DNA of 42,339 nucleotides. Origin: Eubacteriales bacterium (GTDB taxonomy: Bacteria > Bacillota > Clostridia > Oscillospirales > CAG-272). The position numbers and the translations under genes are program-made. This document shows, piece by piece, positions 2,313 through 33,942 of the stretch. Numbering within the stretch: the stretch's first letter is position 1; the number at the start of each line of letters is the position of its first letter. The notes beneath the pieces were generated by a model. It did not search any database, was not told the origin of the DNA, and was given only the letters and a program-made list of their open reading frames with translations. The stretch spans positions 1-42,339 of the forward strand of contig JAZNPQ010000009.1 in the NCBI GenBank assembly GCA_045589735.1. The letters are read 5' to 3'.

Positions 2313-4127
2313 TTAAATCATAGAAAGTATCGCTTTTTTTACGTCACCGTACATATAAAGCGAGCCGAGTGCGATTATCGGTCTGCCTGTCTTATTTGCC
2401 CGTTTGAGTGCAGCTTCGACAGATTTTTTTATATCATCGTTTCCTTCTGCGTATATTCCACATTTTTTAAACTCTTCCGCATAAGAGACTGCGTCAAGCG
2501 AACGGGGATTATCGGGTTTCAAGGTAAACGCCGACTCGGCAATGACAGACAACTCACGCGCCATATCGGCGTAGTCCTTATCCTTCATAACACCGCTGAG
2601 CAGAATGACATTTTGATCTCCGAAAAGCTTTTTCACGCAATCGACCGCCGCCGCAATTCCCTCTGGATTATGCGAGCCGTCGATTATCACGAGCGGAGAA
2701 TCCGAAAGCTTTTCGAATCTTCCCTTCCATTCGGCGTTTCGAAGGCCCGTGACAAGTGCGTTTTCGTCGATATCAAGTCCTCTCTTACGCAAAATATCCA
2801 CAGCGCATATAACGTTCGCGGCATTGTGAGGCTGATAAGTTCCGAGTAATTTTATAGAATATTCTTTTCCGCACAGCTTAAAGACTGTTCCGCAAAGGTC
2901 AGTCTTTATTATTTCAAGCTCACTCTGCGGTGTTACAAAAAATTCCGAGCCTTTTTCCAGCGCGACCGTTTTTATTACCTCTGCGGCAGTATCATCCGTT
3001 CCGCCGTACAGTACAGGTGCGCCGTTTTTGATTATTCCCGCCTTTTCTGCGGCAATTTCGGCAACCGTATTTCCGAGAAACGCCGTATGGTCAAGTGAAA
3101 TCCCTGTTATTACCGACATTATCGGTTCTTTTATTATATTCGTTGCGTCAAGTCTGCCTCCCATACCGACCTCAAGCACAACGGGATCACAGGAATTACG
3201 CTCAAACGCCACCATCGCGACCGCAGTTATAAGCTCAAATTCGGTTGGCGCGTCCTCCATTTTATCGGCAAATTCACGCACATACGACGTAATCTCAGAC
3301 AGTTCAGTGTCTGATATGGGAGTTCCGTTTATTGTAATTCTTTCGTTGAACCGTTCAATATAAGGTGAGGTGTAAAGTCCTGTTTTATATCCCGCCTCAC
3401 GTAAAACCGAATCGCACATAGAGCAGAACGAGCCCTTGCCGTTCGTACCCGCGACGTGTATAAATCTAAGTCTATCCTGAGGGTCACCGAGCAGATGCAA
3501 CAGCTCGGTGATACGCTCAAGTCCCGGGCGGCTTCCCGTCCAGCTTACCTTATGTATATATGAAAGTGTTTCCTTGTAATTCATACGTTTGGAATTCCAG
3601 CCGAGGATCTTTCTGCAGCTTCGGTTTTTATATAAAAGGCATATAAGCACTATCTCGATAGGTGCAACGGCAAATAAATAAAGCGGTATTCTCCAAAGGA
3701 TCGACCAGTGATAAAAAGTAAAAAGACCTACTGATTTTATTATCACAGAGCCGAAAAGATGAGCAAATATACCCGAAACTATTATCTGCTTGTATCCGTT
3801 TTCTTTTATTATGAATTTTGACACGACACCCGGAATTACGCCCACAATAGCAGCACCAAACGTGACTATGAGGTTAGGCGGATAGACCTGAGGAGATAGC
3901 AGATAGCTTATAAGATCCGACGCAGCACCTATCATAGCTCCTCCGACAGGTCCTAAGATCATACCCGAAATTATTATCGGCAGATGCTCAAAGGTCACTC
4001 TGAACAGTCCCGCACCGAAATTTAAATAGCTTTTACAAAAAATACCGATAACGACGCTCATAGACGTAAGCATTGCGGCAAGCGTCAGCATTTTGATGCT
4101 TTTAAAGACAAACGAATGTTTTTTCAT
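2313..4127 (-). CDS. folC: Fusion of a folate ECF S component (FolT-like, N-terminal ~180 aa) with folylpolyglutamate/dihydrofolate synthase (FolC)
   Basis: One uninterrupted 604-aa ORF. The N-terminus is a membrane domain (RVTFEHLPIIISGMILGPVGGAMIGAASD). From MNYKETLSYI onward it is typical FolC (HVAGTNGKGS P-loop). The internal ATG has no good RBS. Confidence 0.8.
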   Translation of the reverse strand: MKKHSFVFKSIKMLTLAAMLTSMSVVIGIFCKSYLNFGAGLFRVTFEHLPIIISGMILGPVGGAMIGAASDLISYLLSPQVYPPNLIVTFGAAIVGVIPGVVSKFIIKENGYKQIIVSGIFAHLFGSVIIKSVGLFTFYHWSILWRIPLYLFAVAPIEIVLICLLYKNRSCRKILGWNSKRMNYKETLSYIHKVSWTGSRPGLERITELLHLLGDPQDRLRFIHVAGTNGKGSFCSMCDSVLREAGYKTGLYTSPYIERFNERITINGTPISDTELSEITSYVREFADKMEDAPTEFELITAVAMVAFERNSCDPVVLEVGMGGRLDATNIIKEPIMSVITGISLDHTAFLGNTVAEIAAEKAGIIKNGAPVLYGGTDDTAAEVIKTVALEKGSEFFVTPQSELEIIKTDLCGTVFKLCGKEYSIKLLGTYQPHNAANVICAVDILRKRGLDIDENALVTGLRNAEWKGRFEKLSDSPLVIIDGSHNPEGIAAAVDCVKKLFGDQNVILLSGVMKDKDYADMARELSVIAESAFTLKPDNPRSLDAVSYAEEFKKCGIYAEGNDDIKKSVEAALKRANKTGRPIIALGSLYMYGDVKKAILSMI

Positions 4128-4215: not shown

Positions 4216-4310
4216 ACAAAGCGGGATGCAGGCAACCGACCGCGCTACGCTTCGTCCGAATGACAACTCCCCGTCCACTCGTCACTTAACGCCGACTGCC
4301 TTACTCTTTT
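4216..4310 (-). promoter_or_regulatory. THF-I riboswitch
   Basis: The minus strand reads AGAGTAAGGCAGTCGGCGTTAAGTGACGAGTGGACGGGGAGTTGTCATTCGGACGAAGCGTAGCGCGGTCGGTTGCCTGCATCCCGCTTTG. This closely parallels the E. siraeum THF aptamer (GAGUAG..GCGUUAAGUG..GGGAUGUCGUCAC..ACGAAGCG..AGCGCGGU..UGCAUCCGCUC). A TATAAT box lies just upstream. An anti-SD segment (tacctcctttttt) lies downstream, opposite the RBS. Confidence 0.85.
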
Positions 4311-8958: not shown

Positions 8959-9694
8959 CAAAAATTAATGCCGTCGGTGGGATTGATATGTGGGGCTCTG
9001 CCCCATCCCCCGCCAAAGAAACTTTTTGCAAAAAGTTTCTTTGGAATCTTCAAAAAACTTTAAACAAGGGTTAATTTAAGGTTTTTATTTATCTTTCAAA
9101 GCTTGACCGTGTCAAGCTTTGAGGGTTTATACGGCACTTTACGCGGCAGTGGCCGCCGGATATGCGCTTCGCGCAAATCCTGGAGAGTTTGCGCAAAGCG
9201 CAAACTCTCAGGTCTTACTAAAAGTGAAGTCTGCATCGGCGCCCTGCCTTCTCGCTCCCGCAGTCGCGGCTCAAACGCACGCCATTGCGGCGTTCTCACT
9301 GCGCGACACGAAAGAACAATGTAAATTTTAAAATTTTTGAACAGATAATATCGCTATTATGTCGCGTCGTGAGTGTGTCCGTATGGCAACACACGAGCCG
9401 CGACTGCGATAGCGACAAGTCGGGGTGCCGTGGTGAACCTCACTTTTAGCAAGACCATCAGCCCCGACGTGCTAAATACCGTGCTATCCCTCACCTACCG
9501 CGACCGAGCGGTCGGTGAAAGCTGTATAAATACATAGGATAAATCATTTATTTTTGAAAGTTTTTGAAGATTATTGGGGCGAGATGTTTGCGCTCTGCGC
9601 AAACTCTCCAGGATTTGCGCGAAGCGCATATCCGATTCTTATGTGGGTGTGGGCAACGCCCACGAATCAACCGATCGTTAAATCCCAATTTGTT
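8959..9694. mobile_element. MITE-like hairpin-array element, copy C (736 bp, left terminus degenerate)
   Basis: The right terminus ttaaatcccaatttgtt ends at 9694. The left end is caaaaattaatgccgtcggtg. Outer arms are collinear with copy B, but the core (9259-9408) is inverted relative to B. Confidence 0.7.
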
Positions 9695-9705
9695 AACATA
9701 AAAAA

Positions 9706-10207: not shown

Positions 10208-11899
10208 ATGAAAAACTATCCTTTTAATCCCACGTTTGACTATGCAAACGTAAGAGAGCTCGTTGAGGGCTCAGCAAAGCTTTACGGTGAAAAAATCGCC
10301 TTTTCTTTTAAGGCTCATCGCGCAAACAGCGTTACAAAAGTCTCATTCAATAAGCTCCGCGACGACGTTCGCGCCGCCGCAACGGGACTTCACGCAAAGC
10401 AGTTGTCCGGTAAACATATAGCAGTTATCAGCAAAATATCGTATAACTATGCCTGTGCGTATTTTTCGCTTCTTGCGTCGGGCTCGGTCATAGTTCCGCT
10501 CGACCCCGAATGGAGTGCCGCAGACCTTGCCGCAACCGTCGCAAGAGCCGAATGTGAATATGTTTTGTATGAATCTGATATTGCGGAGAAAATCGAAGCA
10601 ATACTCGCATACGACGGCACATCCGCAAAAGCAGCCTTCACTCTTGACGGCGACGGTGAGAATAGCTTTAACGGAATTATTGCTCACGGAAACGAATGCC
10701 TTAAAAACGGAGACAGCTCATATTTTGATTGCAGACTTAAGCCGAATGAGCTTTCCCTGCTCGTTTTCACGTCCGGAACTACAGGAAAAGGCAAGGGCGT
10801 TATGCTCTCGCAGACAAATATCATATCAAACGTACGAAATCTCATCAAGGTTATAACGGTAGGCGACAAAACGATAGCAGCACTTCCGCCTCATCATACA
10901 TTTGGCTCGACCGTAAACTTCCTCGGTCACGTAACTCTTGGGCGTGAGGTGTATCTCTCCGGCGGTCTTAAATACATTCAAAAGGAATTAAAAGAAGAAA
11001 AGCCCACGCACCTCGTACTTGTTCCGCTTTACCTTGAGACCTTCTACAGAAAAATCTGGGCAAACATCAAAAAGGAAGGCAAGGAAGAGCTTGTCAAGAA
11101 GATGATGAAGGCTTCAAACGCAATGCGCAAGGTCGGCGTCGATATGAGACGTACGCTTTTCTCGTCAATTCTCGCGGCATTCGGCGGAGAGGTCAGGCTC
11201 GTTATCTGCGGGGGCGCGCCTATCAGCCGTGAAATACTTGAAGCGTACGACGCATGGGGTATCACGGTACTCAACGGCTACGGCATCACAGAATGCTCCC
11301 CCGTTGTCGCGGTAAACAGAAATCTCGATAACCATCACGGCTCGGTCGGCAACGTCGTTCCCGAGGATAAGGTCATAATCCACAGACCTAACGAGCTTGG
11401 TGAGGGAGAGATTAGAGTCAAAGGTCCTAACGTAATGCTTGGATACTTTAAGGACGAAGAAGCTACAGCCGAGGCGTTCGACAAGAACGGTTACTTCAAA
11501 ACAGGTGACTACGGTAAGCTTGAAAACGATATTCTTACCATCACGGGACGCAAGAAAAATCTCATTATTCTCTCAAATGGTAAAAACGTATATCCCGAAG
11601 AGATCGAGAGCGAGCTGATAGCTGTTCCCGGTGTGCTTGATATCGTGGTATATGAAGGTCAGAGCCGAAGAGGAATCGAGCATAACGCGATAGTCGCTGA
11701 AATATACCCCGACAAAGAATTCCTTGAGAAAAATAATATCACCGACGTCAAGGAATACTTCAGACCGTTTATAAATGAGTATAACAAAAATGCGGTGACA
11801 TATAAAAAGATATCACTCCTCAAGGTACGAAAAGAAGAGTTCCCGAAGAATACGCTCCGTAAAATTATGCGCTTTAAAATAGATATGTCAATAGATTAA
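10208..11899 (+). CDS. AMP-binding long-chain acyl-CoA ligase family protein
   Basis: 563 aa. AMP-binding motif FTSGTTGKGKGVML, plus TGDYG and GRKKN motifs. Confidence 0.8.
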   Translation: MKNYPFNPTFDYANVRELVEGSAKLYGEKIAFSFKAHRANSVTKVSFNKLRDDVRAAATGLHAKQLSGKHIAVISKISYNYACAYFSLLASGSVIVPLDPEWSAADLAATVARAECEYVLYESDIAEKIEAILAYDGTSAKAAFTLDGDGENSFNGIIAHGNECLKNGDSSYFDCRLKPNELSLLVFTSGTTGKGKGVMLSQTNIISNVRNLIKVITVGDKTIAALPPHHTFGSTVNFLGHVTLGREVYLSGGLKYIQKELKEEKPTHLVLVPLYLETFYRKIWANIKKEGKEELVKKMMKASNAMRKVGVDMRRTLFSSILAAFGGEVRLVICGGAPISREILEAYDAWGITVLNGYGITECSPVVAVNRNLDNHHGSVGNVVPEDKVIIHRPNELGEGEIRVKGPNVMLGYFKDEEATAEAFDKNGYFKTGDYGKLENDILTITGRKKNLIILSNGKNVYPEEIESELIAVPGVLDIVVYEGQSRRGIEHNAIVAEIYPDKEFLEKNNITDVKEYFRPFINEYNKNAVTYKKISLLKVRKEEFPKNTLRKIMRFKIDMSID

Positions 11900-11903
11900 T
11901 AAT

Positions 11904-12069
11904 AAGGAGAACTAGCGTGAAAGTTTGTCATGCTGTTGAGAAAAGTTCACGGATCACGCTACCAAATTTAAACTAAAAATGGGGCCCAACCCATTTTTGT
12001 TTGCAAAGCAAACACGCTTAAATTTTATTATTTTTTGTGCCGCCGCATGGCGGCGGAATGGAGATTACA
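11904..12069 (+). repeat. 166-bp structured intergenic repeat, copy 1
   Basis: Homologous along its whole length to the reverse complement of 19231-19397. Runs from aaggaga-tagcgtgaaag to gtgccgccgcatggcggcggaatggagattaca. Contains 3-4 hairpins. Confidence 0.8.
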
Positions 12070-12543
12070 ATGAAACCCGAAAGATACAACGAATTTACAC
12101 TGCTCATTGAAGGAACACATAAGCTCATACAAAAAATAAAGCTCGACCGTTCAAAGGAATTCGGAATAAAGGGCGTTCACGTATTCTGGCTCTGCCGTCT
12201 GCTCGCACAGCCCGAGGGAATGACATCTGCAGAGCTTGCGGCGCAGAGAATGATAGACCGTTCTCTCGTTTCGCGTGAGATAGACGAGCTTCTTGACAAG
12301 GGCTACATACAGGTTGACAAAAAAGCGGTTGGAAAGAGACGAAGCTACAACAGCATTATAACCCTCACACCCGAAGGGATCAAGGTTGCAAAGAAAATAT
12401 CGGGAATGGCTATGGAGATACAGACCGAAGCCAACAAAGGCATACGTGAATCCGAGCTTGTTTCCTTCTACCGCACCCTGACAACGATATACAATAACCT
12501 TTACGACTATTCTGAGCAGTACGAGGAAGAGGTAAACGCATAA
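12070..12543 (+). CDS. MarR family transcriptional regulator
   Basis: Winged-helix region (MTSAELAAQRMIDRSLVSREIDELLDKGYI). Start placed at MKPERY, with GGAG 6 nt upstream. The track ORF starts at a GTG inside a hairpin. Confidence 0.75.
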   Translation: MKPERYNEFTLLIEGTHKLIQKIKLDRSKEFGIKGVHVFWLCRLLAQPEGMTSAELAAQRMIDRSLVSREIDELLDKGYIQVDKKAVGKRRSYNSIITLTPEGIKVAKKISGMAMEIQTEANKGIRESELVSFYRTLTTIYNNLYDYSEQYEEEVNA

Positions 12544-17084: not shown

Positions 17085-17153
17085 TGTTTTACAAATAAAT
17101 TTAAATTTTAAAATATTTTTGCCACCTCTGTAGTGGAGAAATGGAGATTGATT

Positions 17154-18068
17154 ATGAAACTTTCGTTCGGTTCAGCTTTTCAACAAGCAGGAGAAAAACA
17201 CTCTCACCTTGAGCTTCTCAAGATAGCCAAGGAAATAGGCTTTGGATGTTATGACCTCGACCTCGGTCTTGCGGGAAGTATGACAGGTGAAGACAGAGAT
17301 TCCAATGCTGAGACTTGGAAAAATTTGTTTGAGGAGGCAGGGGTTTCGGTGACTCAAACTCACGCGCCAAAAAAATCGTTTGAGATCGTAACGGGATGTC
17401 TCTTTTTCTGCCAAAAGGCAGGCTTCCCAAACGTAATTGTCCACCCTATTGCCACCCCTAATAATACTCGCGACGAGTTCTGGGAAAAAAACATAACACG
17501 AATAAAATCTTTTATTCCGTACGTTGAAGAAACGGGTGTCGAGATACTCGTTGAAAATATCGGTCAGTATACAGACCCGTATTTCTTCTGGTCAGGCAAG
17601 GATCTGCGCGCTTTTCTTGACGAGATAGATCATCCGCTTATAAACGCTTGTTGGGATATAGGTCACGCCAACCACTTCTACTATATGCACGTCGGCGGAA
17701 GCCAGTACAATTCCATAATCACTCTCGGCGACAAACTCAAAGCGATCCATGCTCACGACAATATAGGATACTTCACGCACTACACGCAGGGGGTCATTGA
17801 TATGCATATGATGCCCTATGCGACAGGCGGTTGCTCCGTAAGCTGGGATGCTGTTCTGCAAGGTCTTAAGGATATAAACTATAAAGGCACGTTCAATTTT
17901 GAAACTCCCGGTGTATTCACATCAAAGAGGGCGGTAGATTTCGTTTATAACGGTGAGGTCGTAGACAGACTTAAGAAGCCTTCCTTTGAGGTTTGGAAGG
18001 CAAGCACGCAGCTTCTTCACGCAATAGGTAAATCTATGCTTGAAGAGTATGATATGTTTGAGGAATAA
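17154..18068 (+). CDS. Sugar phosphate isomerase/epimerase-like TIM-barrel protein (paralog 1)
   Basis: WDIGHANH and HAHDN motifs. Roughly two-thirds identical by eye to the next gene. Confidence 0.7.
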   Translation: MKLSFGSAFQQAGEKHSHLELLKIAKEIGFGCYDLDLGLAGSMTGEDRDSNAETWKNLFEEAGVSVTQTHAPKKSFEIVTGCLFFCQKAGFPNVIVHPIATPNNTRDEFWEKNITRIKSFIPYVEETGVEILVENIGQYTDPYFFWSGKDLRAFLDEIDHPLINACWDIGHANHFYYMHVGGSQYNSIITLGDKLKAIHAHDNIGYFTHYTQGVIDMHMMPYATGGCSVSWDAVLQGLKDINYKGTFNFETPGVFTSKRAVDFVYNGEVVDRLKKPSFEVWKASTQLLHAIGKSMLEEYDMFEE

Positions 18069-18101: not shown

Positions 18102-19025
18102 ATGAAGCTTTCTTTAGGTTCGGCTTTTCAGCAGGCAGGAGAAAAGCACACACCGCTTGAGCTTTTGAAGCTTTGCTATGAAATCGGTTTCAGAGGCTAC
18201 GACCTCAGCATCTCTGCAAATATGGCAGCAGATGAGGATCGGAATGCTAAGGCGTCATATTGGAAAAGTTTGTTTGAAGAATCGGGGCTTGAAGTTACAC
18301 AGACTCACGCACCGTTCAAAAACAGTGAACCTATGTTTGACGCGGTCAGCGGTACTTTGTATTTTTGTGAAAAGGCAGGCTTTAAAAATACCGTTATTCA
18401 CCCTGTTGGATACGACGGAAACTCACGCGACGAATTTTTTGAAAACAATCTAAAATACGTACGCTCTCTTATCCCTCACGTTGAGGCGACCGGAACCGAG
18501 CTTCTCGTTGAAAATATCGGTCAGTATACAGACCCGTATTTCTTCTGGTCGGCCAAGGATATGCGTGAATTTCTTGATGAGGTCAACCATCCGCTTGTTA
18601 ACGCTTGTTGGGATATAGGTCACGCAAACCATTTCTACTATATGCACGTCGGCGGAAGTCCGTACGATTCGATAGTCACGCTCGGAGACAAACTTAAAGC
18701 AGTCCATGCGCATGACAACGTCGGATATTTCACCCACCACAAGCAGATAACCATCGATATGCACATGATGCCCTATGCCTCAGGCTTCTGCTCTGTTAAC
18801 TGGGATGCCGTTATGCAAGGGCTTAAGGACATAAACTACAAGGGTACGTTCAATTTCGAGACCGGTGGAGTATCATCTGTAAAGAAAAGACCTGAATTTG
18901 TATATGACGGAGAGGTGGTTCACACTTTGGAAACACCGTCGTTTGAGGTCTGGAGAGACGGCACACGTCTGCTTCACTCAATAGGTAAATCTATGCTTGA
19001 AGCATACGGTATGTACGAAGAATAA
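18102..19025 (+). CDS. Sugar phosphate isomerase/epimerase-like TIM-barrel protein (paralog 2)
   Basis: Tandem paralog of 17154-18068. Long identical blocks such as LVENIGQYTDPYFFWS and ACWDIGHANHFYYMHVGGS. Confidence 0.7.
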   Translation: MKLSLGSAFQQAGEKHTPLELLKLCYEIGFRGYDLSISANMAADEDRNAKASYWKSLFEESGLEVTQTHAPFKNSEPMFDAVSGTLYFCEKAGFKNTVIHPVGYDGNSRDEFFENNLKYVRSLIPHVEATGTELLVENIGQYTDPYFFWSAKDMREFLDEVNHPLVNACWDIGHANHFYYMHVGGSPYDSIVTLGDKLKAVHAHDNVGYFTHHKQITIDMHMMPYASGFCSVNWDAVMQGLKDINYKGTFNFETGGVSSVKKRPEFVYDGEVVHTLETPSFEVWRDGTRLLHSIGKSMLEAYGMYEE

Positions 19026-19065: not shown

Positions 19066-19230
19066 TTATTTTTTATCTTTCTTTTTCTTTGTTTTAAGTT
19101 GTCTCAATACCGAAAAATTTGCTATTACGTAGGTCGCCATTATAATGATTCCTATGATCAGAAATACGCCAAGCAGACCTATTCCCATATATTTGAGATT
19201 TTCAATAAAATTATAAGGTTCGAATATCAT
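19066..19230 (-). CDS. OadG-like small membrane subunit of a Na+-translocating decarboxylase
   Basis: 54 aa: MIFEPYNFIENLKYMGIGLLGVFLIIGIIIMATYVI. One TM helix and a basic tail. Downstream of oadB. Start placed at the ATG after the repeat-borne GGAG. Confidence 0.55.
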   Translation of the reverse strand: MIFEPYNFIENLKYMGIGLLGVFLIIGIIIMATYVIANFSVLRQLKTKKKKDKK

Positions 19231-19397
19231 AATAATCTCCATTCCGCCGCCATAGCGGCGGCACAACAAAATAATAAAATTCAAATGCGTTCGCTTTGCG
19301 AACAAAAATGGGTTCGGGTCCCATTTTTAATTTGAATTTGGTAGCGTGACAAGTGAATTTCACACACAGTATGATAATCTTTCACGCTAATCTCCTT
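19231..19397 (-). repeat. 166-bp structured intergenic repeat, copy 2
   Basis: Its reverse complement aligns with 11904-12069. It has the same polarity relative to the flanking genes. Confidence 0.8.
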
Positions 19398-19400
19398 TCA

Positions 19401-20546
19401 TTACGAGAAGAATCCAAGCACGAGTGCGCCCGCGATAACCGAGGCTATCTGTCCCGAAACGTTAACACCTATCGAATGCATAAGCAGGAAGTTCTGGTTG
19501 TCCTCTTCAAGTGCAAGCTTATGAACGATACGTCCGGACATCGGGAATGCCGAAATACCGGCAGCACCTATCATAGGATTGATAAGTGGCTTCTTAAGAA
19601 GCTTCATAATTACGTTATAGAGCTTTGCAAACAGTACGCCGCCGGCAGTATCGAAGATGAACGCAACGAGACCGAGTCCCATAATGAGAAGAGTTGCGGG
19701 AGCGAGGAACTGTTCGTAATGCATATTGAATGCTATAGTGATTCCGAGCAATATTGTTATAAGGTTTGCAAGCACCTTCTGCGCTGTCTCGGATATAGAA
19801 TCAAGGACTCCGCACTCACGGATAAGATTACCGAACATAAGGAATCCGATAAGAGATCCTGCCGCAGGAGCAAAGATACACGCTACTATAGAAATAATTA
19901 TCGGGAAAAGAATTCTCGTTGTCTTGGATACCGACTTCTGCTCGTACGGCATACGAATCATTCTTTCCTTCTTTGTTGTGAGCAGCTTGATAACCGGGGG
20001 CTGTATAATAGGAACGAGCGCCATATAAGAGTACGCCGCGACGGTAATCGCGCCTATATAATTAGAGCCGAGCGCGTTTGCAACAACGATTGAGGTTGGT
20101 CCGTCTGCCGCACCGATAATAGATATCGACGCCGCATCCTTTATTTCGGGGAAGAAAATTGAAGCCGTACAAAGTGTAAAGAATATACCAAACTGCGCGG
20201 CAGCTCCGAACAGCATAAGCTTAGGGTTGGTAAGCAGCGGTCCGAAGTCTATCATAGCCCCGATTCCTATAAACAAAAGCAGAGGAAACAGCTCGTTTGC
20301 AATACCCGCGTTATAAAGCGTTTCAAGAGGCTCTGCGATTCCGCCAAAATGCCTTACACCGTCAACGTAGGTAACGACACCCGGGAAGTTCATAAAAATT
20401 GCTCCGAAGCCGATAGGCAAAAGAAGCGTCGGTTCCATTTGCTTTTTGATAGCCAAAAAGATCAGTATTCCGCCAATCAGCCACATCAGCATCATTCTGA
20501 CGTCGAGCTGAGTTGCGGGTTCAAACAGTTTGATCAGTTCTCCCAT
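19401..20546 (-). CDS. Sodium ion-translocating decarboxylase beta subunit (OadB/GcdB/MmdB family)
   Basis: 381-aa polytopic protein with family-typical GIANELFPLLLFIGIGAMIDFGPLL. Confidence 0.8.
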   Translation of the reverse strand: MGELIKLFEPATQLDVRMMLMWLIGGILIFLAIKKQMEPTLLLPIGFGAIFMNFPGVVTYVDGVRHFGGIAEPLETLYNAGIANELFPLLLFIGIGAMIDFGPLLTNPKLMLFGAAAQFGIFFTLCTASIFFPEIKDAASISIIGAADGPTSIVVANALGSNYIGAITVAAYSYMALVPIIQPPVIKLLTTKKERMIRMPYEQKSVSKTTRILFPIIISIVACIFAPAAGSLIGFLMFGNLIRECGVLDSISETAQKVLANLITILLGITIAFNMHYEQFLAPATLLIMGLGLVAFIFDTAGGVLFAKLYNVIMKLLKKPLINPMIGAAGISAFPMSGRIVHKLALEEDNQNFLLMHSIGVNVSGQIASVIAGALVLGFFS

Positions 20547-27244: not shown

Positions 27245-27388
27245 ACAATCCGAGCCACAAAACCAAACCGCGATTATAGCAAACTCATACCGTCAGGTGA
27301 CTAAACGGTTCACCCCGTGTCGAGTTTTTTCTTCTGCCGTTAGTATAGCATACTATCAAGAATTAGTCAAGCGCCTTCTCTCAACACT

Positions 27389-27422
27389 CAAAATTTGCAT
27401 CGCAGAAGTCAAAGAAAACGCC
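27389..27422 (+). repeat. 34-nt island motif, copy 1
   Basis: caaaatttgcatcgcagaagtcaaagaaaacgcc. It recurs at 28741-28774 and, more diverged, at 33269-33300. Confidence 0.75.
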
Positions 27423-27514
27423 GAGAGAAAAAACAATCTCTACAAGTGTTAACTGTGAGCGATTAAAAATCCCTCATTTTAGAAATAATATTGAGGGAAT
27501 ATTCCCTCAAACCG

Positions 27515-28618: not shown

Positions 28619-28740
28619 TAAAATGAAATTGGGGAACAGCGTATAACGACTATATTGCAAATGTTCCCCCAATGCATATTTTAGGATAGTTCAAAATTGT
28701 GATTATGCATATTTTCGGAAGGCAACCGTCAATCCATACG

Positions 28741-28774
28741 CAAAATTTGCTTCGCAGAAGTCAAAGAAAACGCC
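28741..28774 (+). repeat. 34-nt island motif, copy 2
   Basis: caaaatttgcttcgcagaagtcaaagaaaacgcc. Confidence 0.75.
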
Positions 28775-28865
28775 ACGTGAAAAAAGCCCAAATTTATTTT
28801 CGAAAAAGTGCTGGACTTCCTCTCTCTTCTGTGGTATGTTGTTGTGCTAACAGGAGGTGCAACCT

Positions 28866-32835: not shown

Positions 32836-33192
32836 ATGGAAAACTATATCATCATCGGAATGATTGCCGTCATCGTAGTTATTGCTGTTATTTCAAGCAT
32901 CAAGCACTTCAAGGGCGAGGGCGGTTGCTGTGGCGGTGGCAGCTACAAGCCGAAGCGTAAGAAGCTCTCGGGCATAAAATACACGAAAAAATTCAAGGTC
33001 GGCGGTATGCACTGCGAGCATTGTAAGAATAGGGTTGAAGAAGCCGTTAACGACATCAAAGGTGTTGCAGGCATAGTCGATCTCAAAAAAGGAGAACTGA
33101 CCGTGTCCTATGCCGAGGACGTTGACGATAAAATCATAAAGGCAAAGATCGAAAGAGCCGGATATACGGTTACAAGATTAATAAATCAATAA
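32836..33192 (+). CDS. Membrane-anchored heavy-metal-associated (HMA) domain protein
   Basis: N-terminal TM helix, a GGCCGGG segment, then an HMA fold with GMHCEHC. Confidence 0.75.
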   Translation: MENYIIIGMIAVIVVIAVISSIKHFKGEGGCCGGGSYKPKRKKLSGIKYTKKFKVGGMHCEHCKNRVEEAVNDIKGVAGIVDLKKGELTVSYAEDVDDKIIKAKIERAGYTVTRLINQ

Positions 33193-33268
33193 TTGCATCG
33201 CTGTAACCAAAGAAAATGCCCAACGAAAAAAGCTGAAATCGAAGGAGGTCTGTCCTACGGTCAGCCCT

Positions 33269-33300
33269 CAAAATTTGCATCGCAGTAGGCAAAGAAAAGG
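33269..33300 (+). repeat. 34-nt island motif, copy 3 (diverged)
   Basis: caaaatttgcatcgcagtaggcaaagaaaagg. Confidence 0.6.
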
Positions 33301-33326
33301 GCTCTGAGAAACACTTCTCAGAGCCA
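33299..33326 (-). terminator. Terminator after the island-borne tRNA-Pro
   Basis: Minus strand: ggctctgagaa-gtgt-ttctcagagcc followed by cttttc. Confidence 0.65.
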
Positions 33327-33329
33327 AAA

Positions 33330-33406
<77 letters not shown>

Positions 33407-33428
33407 AAGGTGGTATTTTTCAATTTTT

Positions 33429-33457
33429 CTGTAAGTGGTCAAACATGTGGTCAAACC
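33429..33457 (+). repeat. 29-bp sub-terminal direct repeat of the island (right copy)
   Basis: ctgtaagtggtcaaacatgtggtcaaacc. See 27216-27244. Confidence 0.7.
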
Positions 33458-33560
33458 GAGGAATTGATGATTTTTCGACATTCGGGAGAGCCGAAAAAGT
33501 CAGTGTTTTCAAGGGCTTTCGGCACTTTCCGAAAAATCTGCGCCGAGAACGGTGATTGAG

Positions 33561-33599
33561 TCCCGAACCAAGCGCTCTACCAAGCTGAGCCACACCCCG
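33561..33599 (-). pseudogene. 5' half of a split tRNA-Pro(CGG), from the acceptor stem to the anticodon loop
   Basis: The minus strand reads CGGGGTGTGGCTCAGCTTGGTAGAGCGCTTGGTTCGGGA, then non-tRNA sequence. It shares the 9-nt GTTCGGGAC with the 3' half at 27062-27107. Confidence 0.8.
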
Positions 33600-33614
33600 A
33601 ATTGATACCATAGT

Positions 33615-33678: not shown

Positions 33679-33942
33679 CTTCAAGTATTGCTTCGCAAAA
33701 CTTGACAAAGTTACTTCGTAACTTTTGGGGTTCAAAACCTATCGTCCACCAACACGCAAAAAGCCCCCTCTCTTTTGAGAGGGAGCTTTTTGGTGCCGGA
33801 GACGGTGTTTCTTCAAGTATTGCTTCGCAAAACTTGACAAAGTTACTTCGTAACTTTTGGGGTTCAAAACCTATCGTCCACCAACACGCAAAAAGCCCCC
33901 TCTCTTTTGAGAGGGAGCTTTTTGGTGCCGGAGACGGGTTTC
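33679..33942. repeat. Tandem duplication, 2 x 132 bp, each unit ending in the 3'-terminal ~20 nt of tRNA-Leu
   Basis: The unit cttcaagtattgcttcgcaaaac...aaaaagccccctctcttttgagagggagctttttggtgccggagacgg occurs at 33679 and at 33811. Copy 2 continues into the intact tRNA-Leu. Confidence 0.85.

Follow-up and report, generated by a model that had tools for sequence, protein, structure and literature searches.

A short intergenic repeat that occurs twice in contig JAZNPQ010000009.1 of an Eubacteriales bacterium (assembly GCA_045589735.1; the 42,339 nucleotides analysed here are referred to as the window) is a mobile element rather than a regulatory RNA, and very probably a non-autonomous miniature of an IS110-group insertion sequence (IS) that is moved in trans, similar to a MITE (miniature inverted-repeat transposable element). 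Its two copies, A and B, sit in the contexts that an earlier note on this DNA had proposed and that Pfam searches confirmed, that is, between the genes of an AMP-binding ligase (10208–11899) and a MarR protein (start at 12070), and on the minus strand between oadB (OAD_beta, 20546–19401) and the gene of a 54-aa hydrophobic protein (start at 19230); an exact-protein look-up of the window OadB and MarR returned no record. The end-to-end alignment claimed for the two segments also stands, as 11880–12100 of the plus strand and the reverse complement of 19200–19420 share a mean column identity of 86 % including flanks, with three 1-nt indels. A profile made from 11 copies (see below) matches both with E values of 1e-45 to 1e-48, the repeat finder recovered the pair as three pieces, and there is no further full copy in the window. 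In both copies, the repeat proper reads TA-GCGTG...GGAGAT-TA (coordinates in Table 1) with the termini TAGCGTGAAAG... and ...hairpin-GGAATGGAGATTA, and the common 3′ end that had been pointed out, ...GGCGGCGGAATGGAGATTAnnATG, is read in both.

Insertion between Shine–Dalgarno sequence and start codon

Related genomes hold both junctions without the element. At the ligase–marR junction, three empty sites read TAA-AAAGGGAGGAAATTTTT-ATGAAACCCGAAAGA (L034, ligase 93 % identical), TAA-TCCTTGGAGGTACATT-ATG (L035, 72 %), and TAA-AGTAAAGGAGATCTAAAA-ATG (L036, 72 %), their spacers of 16–18 nt having an own Shine–Dalgarno (SD) sequence immediately behind the stop codon of the ligase gene. At the oadB junction, the element is missing in the metagenome-assembled genome (MAG) “Eubacteriales bacterium SGB_2197” (JAZODV01; OadB 99 % identical), where TAA-GGAGGTAAATATA-ATG leaves a 13-nt spacer, and in L051 (OadB 90 % identical, 15-nt spacer), the empty sites reading GGAGGTAAATATA-ATG and GAAAGGGGAAACGTC-ATG. 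Both window copies thus show presence/absence polymorphism, which for copy B sets the window apart from a MAG that belongs to the same species or to one closely related to it. It follows from the empty junctions that the element is a recent insertion between the native SD and the start codon, which split the native SD from its ATG by ~155 nt, and that the element brought along the GGAG now found six bases ahead of the ATG.

These empty sites bear out the suggestion of an inserted mobile intergenic cassette made in the earlier note, and likewise its claim that the downstream gene owes its SD and start context to the repeat, given that the empty sites have a different, native SD and a 13–18-nt spacer. 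The upstream AAGGAGA, in contrast, had been wrongly counted as part of the repeat: it is the flanking native SD of the host, because empty orthologous sites keep an SD there and because identity among the 11 copies is only 0.27 in the flank upstream of TAGCGTG as compared to 0.95 in the first 11 nt inside. A duplication of the whole SD as target site (a GGAGATTA direct repeat at both ends) was considered and rejected, as neither the sequence nor the distance of the 5′ SD is constant and L018 has no such SD. At the oadB/small-gene junction of an 89 % relative (L052, 2647–2800), there is a different insert of ~125 nt, which has a duplicated SD-like GAAAG(A)GGGAA on its two sides and no sequence relationship to the miniature element. 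It appears that small insertions of more than one kind strike this site.

Further copies came from one genome scan with an internal 18-base pattern and one metagenome scan with a different internal pattern. The genome scan gave four loci, namely L019, the orthologue of copy A (97.7 % identical) in JAZODV01, which represents the same or a closely related species, L014 (between xylA and an unknown gene) and L018 (between MBOAT and GNAT genes) from the same MAG, and L022 (between glmM and glmS) from an Oscillospiraceae MAG. The metagenome scan gave six copies in one assembly (L025, L026, L027, L028, L031, and L033). Beyond the window pair, there are thus nine further distinct copies from Oscillospiraceae/Eubacteriales MAGs and one metagenome, and eleven distinct copies were aligned for identity, structure, and profile work.

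All of these start with (A/T)TAGCGTGA and end with ..CGGA(A)TGGAG(A/G)(T/A)T, followed by three bases and an ATG, so that GGAG-N6-ATG is present in 11/11 miniatures; it is also found in the full-length elements described below. The shared polarity relative to the downstream gene, noticed before for the window pair, extends to the whole set (sense in 11/11 copies, none in the opposite polarity). The downstream genes themselves are unrelated and encode or represent marR, a small membrane protein, glmS, GNAT, argG, a trpB-like gene, and a pseudouridine synthase. The ATG that follows the element in L022 is the start codon obligatory for glmS (MCGIIGY), the first three bases of the element (TAG) form the stop codon of the upstream gene in L018 and L022, and in L027 the ATG opens a 10-codon open reading frame (ORF) only. 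A location between operon genes, as described previously, does not apply to every copy: L033 lies in a divergent intergenic region before argG with TGTATAAT immediately upstream, in L025 and L026 there are 350–550 nt between element and previous gene, and these three copies are situated outside operon interiors, in 5′ leaders. Such copies, which the earlier note had listed as a refuting outcome, refute only the idea of an operon-specific device. No conserved promoter was found inside the element.

In the element's own orientation, every miniature is located next to CATNN (11/11), as is every full-length element, with TA at the right-end (RE) junction in all copies and at the left-end (LE) junction in 9/11 miniatures; terminal inverted repeats are absent (TAGCGTGAAAG vs. 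TAATCTCCATT). Within the element, segment identity amounts to 0.53 in the interior of hairpin P1, 0.90 in the three-way junction, 0.81 in the GC hairpin, and 0.90 in the SD segment, the values for the P1 3′ strand and for P3–P4 being inflated by the scan patterns, which demanded exact matches there.

Full-length relatives and their predicted guide segments

The last ~57 nt of the miniature, comprising an AT-rich stretch, a GC hairpin, and AATGGAGATTA, are in addition found on their own in viral contigs and on a Roseburia plasmid. In L007 and in L037, an annotated “IS110 family transposase” locus on Roseburia plasmid NZ_CP135163, an “IS110 family transposase” gene of the opposite strand has this module ~290 nt upstream, and the L007 protein has DEDD_Tnp_IS110 and Transposase_20 domains. 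Past the stop codon of the transposase gene, the conserved sequence ends with ...CTTTCACACTA. Read along the host-gene strand, this gives TAGTGTGAAAG..., a single-base variant of the 5′ end of the window repeat. Twelve related viral-contig loci yielded eight complete elements of 1647–1669 bp, a size range that also covers the annotated Roseburia plasmid element, with the same two termini and flanks that diverge immediately outside. On the host-gene strand, they extend from TAGTGTGAAAG... to ...GCCGCC-loop-GGCGGCGGAATGGAGATTA, then nnATG, and they occupy the same position and orientation as the miniatures. The more distant L069, L044, and L048 end with (C/T)TTTCACGCTA, as the miniatures do; L069 matches them at 11/11 RE bases and shares the LE start, and the RE terminus of the miniature, CTTTCACGCTA, is identical to L069 and 1 nt off the L038 type. 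With nhmmer, profile positions ~100–161 of the miniature match the LE terminus of L003–L007, L037–L045, L063–L066, and L069 (E values of 1e-5 to 1e-10), this homology spanning the outer ~50–57 nt of the full-length LE and including the GC hairpin P5 as a common element. The full-length elements have a long LE (~290 nt) together with a short RE (~95 nt), and a long LE with a short RE is the layout of the IS110 group (PMC11208160).

Five of the eight viral or plasmid elements and most places of a Hungatella-type element are directly before real ORF starts, and full-length elements are found between co-directional genes (mutL, IS, miaA; SBP, IS, permease). The start annotated on the Roseburia plasmid is placed 14 codons downstream of the ATG adjoining the IS. 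The lineage is large, with 7992 protein clusters at E<1e-60. A search with the 5′-end pattern of the miniature returned only chance SD-plus-GTG matches, and the RE-variant pattern CTACTTNCTTTCACGCTA returned 0.

Approximately 140 nt into the LE, the segment GACAGCAUA-NN-AAUCAGUG contains as NN the two left-flank bases (CATA-NN-AATCTCC) in 8/8 loci with five different NN values, the internal GCAUA-NN-AAUC thus matching the left flank CATA-NN-AATC throughout. Independent insertions with a common guide and half-site are represented by L038/L043, L039/L040, and L042/L045, and all ten places of the Hungatella-type element have CATAC-TA along with the guide CAUACUAAUC. The same correspondence is seen between the internal segments CAUACUAACC, CAUUUUAACA, and UAUAUUAAUC of L068, L067, and L069 and the respective flanks plus LE starts CATAC-TA-ACC, CATTT-TA-ACT, and CATAT-TA-ATC. 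A second internal segment, further 3′, tracks the element's own RE end: ACACUA goes with CACACTA (L038 type), ACGCUA with CACGCTA (L044, L048, and L069), CAGAUUA with CAGATTA (L068), and CAACCUA with CAACCTA (L067). In the IS621 model, each guide has top-strand sense and includes the core (PMC11208160), and the two segments are, judging from these matches, the predicted left target guide and left donor guide of that model. The core is TA in most full-length elements, with AA at the LE side in L039, L040, L042, and L045, and the other target half usually has CTCC, CCTCC, or TCTCC at 0–4 nt, i. e., the complement of the host SD. For the right-side guides (RTG/RDG), a GGAGG-rich segment of the full-length LE varies and does not track the flank in register, and a by-eye comparison of the miniature sequences gave no segment that covaries with their CATNN flank as an own target guide would.

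Two further observations concern the full-length family. L006 (470–747; also L003 and L005) is a complete left end of ~280 nt (bridge-RNA region) that lacks a recombinase gene. Its place is within a tail-gene module of a phage, behind the tape-measure gene and directly before a phage gene start, and its guide GUAUG and flank TTATG are one base apart. L053–L062 are identical Hungatella-type copies with mixed flanks (for example SBP, IS, miaA; mutL, IS, permease), which reflect either recombination among the IS copies or chimeras that arose across the repeat in metagenome assembly.

No ORF for a DEDD recombinase or transposase was found in the 155-bp copies or elsewhere in the window. Having neither a recombinase nor a matching guide, the miniatures can only be non-autonomous and moved in trans. 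We propose that a co-resident full-length element of the L069 or L044 type would supply both DEDD recombinase and bridge RNA. The donor guide would recognise the right end (..CTTTCACGC-TA) and the left end (TA-ATCTCCATT..) of the miniature, and the target guide would recognise CATNN-TA, namely the complement of the start codon, two upstream bases, and the TA core; with the other target half usually corresponding to the SD complement, integration would occur at the TA between SD and ATG. Because the target guide would read the complement of the start codon, the orientation would be fixed, the insertion always having the host gene in sense and the (absent) recombinase in antisense orientation. 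On the host-gene strand, the left-end terminus ...GGAATGGAGAT-TA re-creates GGAG exactly 6 nt before the host ATG. Since this terminus mimics the SD half of the target, translation initiation of the host gene would be preserved by the element-borne SD, and the left junction would regenerate a near-copy of the original site. At the other end, the RE stop codons in two frames and the short GTG ORF in the third may release incoming or mis-started ribosomes. Mobilisation of minimal substrates in trans is established for the family, as a 22-bp donor works with bridge RNA supplied in trans (PMC11208160) and a mini-IS is movable in trans (PMC11187229).

Several points weigh against a trans-mobilised IS110 miniature. 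There is no recombinase gene in the window and none was identified in the same genome, and we infer the autonomous partner only from relatives in other gut Clostridia and in viral contigs. The miniatures are found at five different CATNN half-sites, namely CATTG, CATAA, CATAT, CATTT, and CATTA, which needs several guide variants or mismatch tolerance. Their central ~100 nt (P1 interior and three-way junction) are without counterpart in any full-length element examined, so that a simple internal deletion does not explain them; the central module gave 0 matches in viral contigs. The right-end homology is short (11–12 nt). Finally, the filled sites and the empty ones set against them differ in sequence, which means that the TA duplication is deduced and not read off, and the LE-junction TA is absent in 2/11 copies (GA in L018, CA in L026).

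Internal structure, rival explanations, and other features of the window

The hairpins and the short ORF of copy A are listed in Table 1. The 3′ strand of P1 is an internal inverted copy of the RE terminus, while the P1 interior is variable. The first 8 nt of the element, TAGCGTGA, supply TAG and TGA stops in the two frames not used by the GTG ORF, which starts 4–9 nt behind the orphaned native SD among the copies, varies in length and frame (6 codons in five of them), and stops at different points within the element; none of the ORFs extends to the downstream ATG in a consistent manner. That this ORF is not frame-conserved and hence no peptide gene, as argued from the window pair, is upheld across the copies, and a peptide reading was rejected for the GTG ORF and the MGP... 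ORF alike, both of which shift frame between copies. GTG/ATG codons in the GC hairpin and SD (12037–12072) are in-frame with the host gene at the same position in every copy, and because this fixed spacing keeps them in-frame, ORF callers produce artefactual N-terminal extensions (MPPHGGGMEITM..., M.RR.GGGMEI.M...).

Table 1. Positions of the two miniature elements and of their parts in the window.
Feature	Position	Strand	Details
Copy A, miniature IS110-family element	11913..12067	+	155 bp, TA-GCGTGAAAG...GGAATGGAGAT-TA
Copy A, element's own orientation			RE at 11913, LE at 12067
Copy B, miniature element	19233..19389	−	157 bp, oadB / 54-aa membrane-protein gene junction
Native SD of marR (host flank)	11904..11912	+	AAGGAGAAC; now parted from its start codon
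Native SD of small downstream gene (host flank of copy B)	19390..19398	−	AAAGGAGAT
Element-borne SD of copy A	12060..12072	+	GGAG 12060–12063; 6-nt spacer, last 2 nt host flank; marR start 12070–12072
Element-borne SD of copy B	19228..19240	−	GGAG 19240–19237; spacer, then 54-aa gene start codon 19230–19228
P1	11914..11960	+	AGCGTGA (11914–11920) pairs with TCACGCT (11954–11960)
Three-way junction	11964..12026	+	P2 = 11964–11971 with 12019–12026
P3	11975–11998	+	AAAAATGGG/CCCATTTTT
P4	11999–12013	+	GTTTGC/GCAAAC
LE-homologous module	12020..12067	+	AT-rich stretch, GC hairpin P5 (12037–12058), AATGGAGAT-TA
GTG-initiated short ORF	11917..11976	+	19 codons, 7 nt behind orphaned native SD

It is conceivable that the repeat is instead a cis-regulatory structured RNA (leader, attenuator, riboswitch-like, or processing element) used by several operons. 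Both window copies fold better than shuffled controls (z scores of −3.6 and −4.5), 97.9 % of the cells in the 11-copy alignment are paired, P1, P2 (two sequences), and P4 (three sequences) show compensatory changes, among them the previously described pair GTTTGC/GCAAAC vs. GTTCGC/GCGAAC, which is real, the three-way junction is 90 % identical across genomes, and the position is always sense and transcribed. However, covariation is confined to 3 of 39 pairs as compared to 29 that never vary, and the search patterns account for part of the conservation of P3–P4 and of the P1 3′ strand. Rfam held no family for either copy at gathering score or even at E≤10 (the phage left-end region likewise gave only noise), and there is thus neither a curated match nor an association with a single gene family as in riboswitch and other cis-regulatory families. 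With unrelated downstream genes, presence/absence that differs at 93–99 % neighbour-gene identity, and two termini that are IS110-type recombination ends, we regard this explanation, which the earlier note had kept as an alternative, as very unlikely. The A5-GGG/CCC-T5 hairpin AAAAATGGG...CCCATTTTT noted before is indeed present, but the scan tool calls it terminator-like solely on the strand that is antisense to the host genes.

The full-length IS could otherwise be a smaller IS that has inserted into a host repeat akin to repetitive extragenic palindromic (REP) sequences, the repeat itself being the IS110 target and the source of the shared ends. Members of the IS110 family often target repeats such as REP (PMC11208160), and the 3′ module is found alone next to IS110 transposases and in phage contigs. 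Yet the guide–flank covariation falls outside the shared termini (CATNN-TA, then ATCTCC) and the donor guide corresponds to the outermost RE bases, so that the recombination junctions are the outer boundaries; moreover, the central region of the miniature is on neither side of the full-length elements, and the flanks diverge immediately beyond the shared termini in 8 loci. An IS inserted into a pre-existing repeat was therefore rejected on account of these outer junctions and of the RE-side flank of L007, which lacks the 5′ part of the miniature, and a host repeat of this kind appears highly improbable. Even less credit can be given to a MITE of another class, such as IS630/Tc1-mariner (TA-duplicating), IS200/IS605 (PATE), or a REP/RAYT-type hairpin element, despite TA at both junctions in 9/11 copies, hairpins near the ends, and a lack of coding capacity: terminal inverted repeats are missing, the end hairpins are unlike each other, and elements that encode a DEDD_Tnp_IS110 protein have identical termini and an identical insertion site. 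A classical DDE-derived MITE was rejected for the missing inverted repeats and for junctions that have only the TA dinucleotide.

An additional idea, unlikely yet worth entertaining, starts from the three-way junction, which is nearly invariant across genomes and absent from the full-length elements examined and may for this reason be a functional RNA module of the miniature. It may act as a stop–restart intercistronic insulator that would uncouple translation or stability of neighbouring cistrons, or give rise to an antisense small RNA ending at P3 that would interfere with or exploit the recombinase/bridge-RNA system, by analogy to what is proposed for Ssr9 of MITEPpu9.

Other parts of the window contain repeats of their own. 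At 17085–17153 (plus strand), between degV and a gene starting at 17154 (whose tandem paralogue at 18102 has an ordinary SD), there is an isolated, diverged LE-terminus module with an AT-rich stretch, a short hairpin, and AAATGGAGATTGATT-ATG (nhmmer E=0.001, profile positions 96–156), which may be a relic of an older miniature or full element. Dense direct and inverted repeats at 1–1700 and 8987–9700 (blocks of 50–190 nt, 73–98 % identical) belong to a different family with palindromes such as AAGAAACTTTTTGCAAAAAGTTTCTT and TTCAACGGTTGC..GCAACCGTTGAA; they bracket a segment of ~8 kb with a folC/ECF gene under control of a tetrahydrofolate (THF) riboswitch and a gene for a 1011-aa lectin-domain protein. 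The THF riboswitch itself (4217–4310, minus strand, 71 bits) lies upstream of the fused ECF-S-component/Mur-ligase (folC-like) gene at 2313–4127. A 60-nt motif (..CAAAATTTGCATCGCAGAAGTCAAAGAAAA..) is present in four copies that are 67–83 % identical (27374–27433, 28726–28785, 33172–33231, and 33254–33313), two of them upstream of plus-strand genes and two next to tRNA-Pro. In addition, a perfect 127-nt tandem duplication (33679–33805 and 33811–33937) abuts tRNA-Leu, and at 33367–33601 a 42-nt 3′ fragment of tRNA-Pro is repeated 193 nt away, only two intact tRNAs being called.

Relation to known systems and significance

The mycobacterial IS900 inserts between the ribosome-binding site and the start codon and has hed (host-expression-dependent ORF) on its complementary strand. 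Its target motif is CATGNNNNNNTCTCCTT, the inverse of the SD plus start codon (PMC8141618). Like IS900, IS901, and IS902, the elements described here insert in a site- and orientation-specific manner with the inverse of SD plus start codon as target, lack terminal inverted repeats, and are antisense to the target gene. In element orientation, their flanks (CATNN-TA ... N(0–4)-TCTCC/CCTCC/CTCC) agree with IS900-type target specificity, the target here being CATNN-TA-N(0–4)-(T)CTCC as compared to CATG N6 TCTCCTT for IS900. The hosts differ, namely gut Clostridia, phage contigs, and plasmids. Further differences are that the left-end terminus carries an SD mimic facing outward, exactly 6 nt from the host ATG, and that the window copies have ~155 bp and no recombinase gene. 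The full-length relatives resemble IS621 (PMC11208160, PMC11187229) in the DEDD recombinase, the long LE and short RE, the internal LE segments with the sense of left target plus core and left donor plus core, and the 2-nt core at both junctions, minimal IS621 donors being movable in trans; they differ in the core, which is TA and not CT, and in the target, a translation-initiation region and not a REP sequence.

MITEPpu9 (ssr9) of Pseudomonas putida is a MITE-like element associated with ISPpu9 of the IS110 family (PMC12288879). It resembles the miniature in being short and non-autonomous, with IS110-like ends, sites that lack a transposase gene, and presumed mobilisation in trans. In contrast to the miniature, which inserts between SD and ATG and replaces the SD, MITEPpu9 carries a small RNA gene and inserts in REP sequences.

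Short, structured, multi-copy repeats within transcription units that can alter the expression of neighbouring cistrons further include ERIC, BOX, Correia (NEMIS), and the mycobacterial MIRU. MIRUs are polar relative to their flanking genes and act via overlapping small ORFs, whereas ERIC and Correia occur in both orientations. None of ERIC, BOX, Correia, and MIRU is known to have IS110-type ends or a fixed 6-nt SD–ATG geometry, and unlike in MIRU no ORF of the miniature links the upstream stop codon and the downstream start codon.

SD/start-codon targeting of the IS900 type, bridge RNAs, and an IS110-family MITE (MITEPpu9) are thus already known. What is new is a very abundant lineage in gut Clostridia whose predicted guide incorporates the start-codon complement; also new are a left end that mimics an SD and a transposase-less derivative of ~155 bp with its own conserved core. 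In practical terms, the miniatures mark strain-level polymorphisms. In annotation, they shift start calls and give rise to artefactual in-frame N-terminal extensions (...GGGMEI(T/I/N)M...), and an end that regenerates the SD could be of use in designing bridge-recombinase donors meant to insert directly upstream of genes. With regard to the family, the miniature represents a natural, cargo-less mini-donor that is apparently moved in trans by a bridge-RNA recombinase, within an IS110 lineage that is abundant in gut Clostridia and their phages and plasmids and in which two variable bases next to the start-codon complement in the predicted guide would retarget the element. Going by its sequence, the SD mimic probably keeps the host gene translatable, which makes low-cost spread inside operons plausible.

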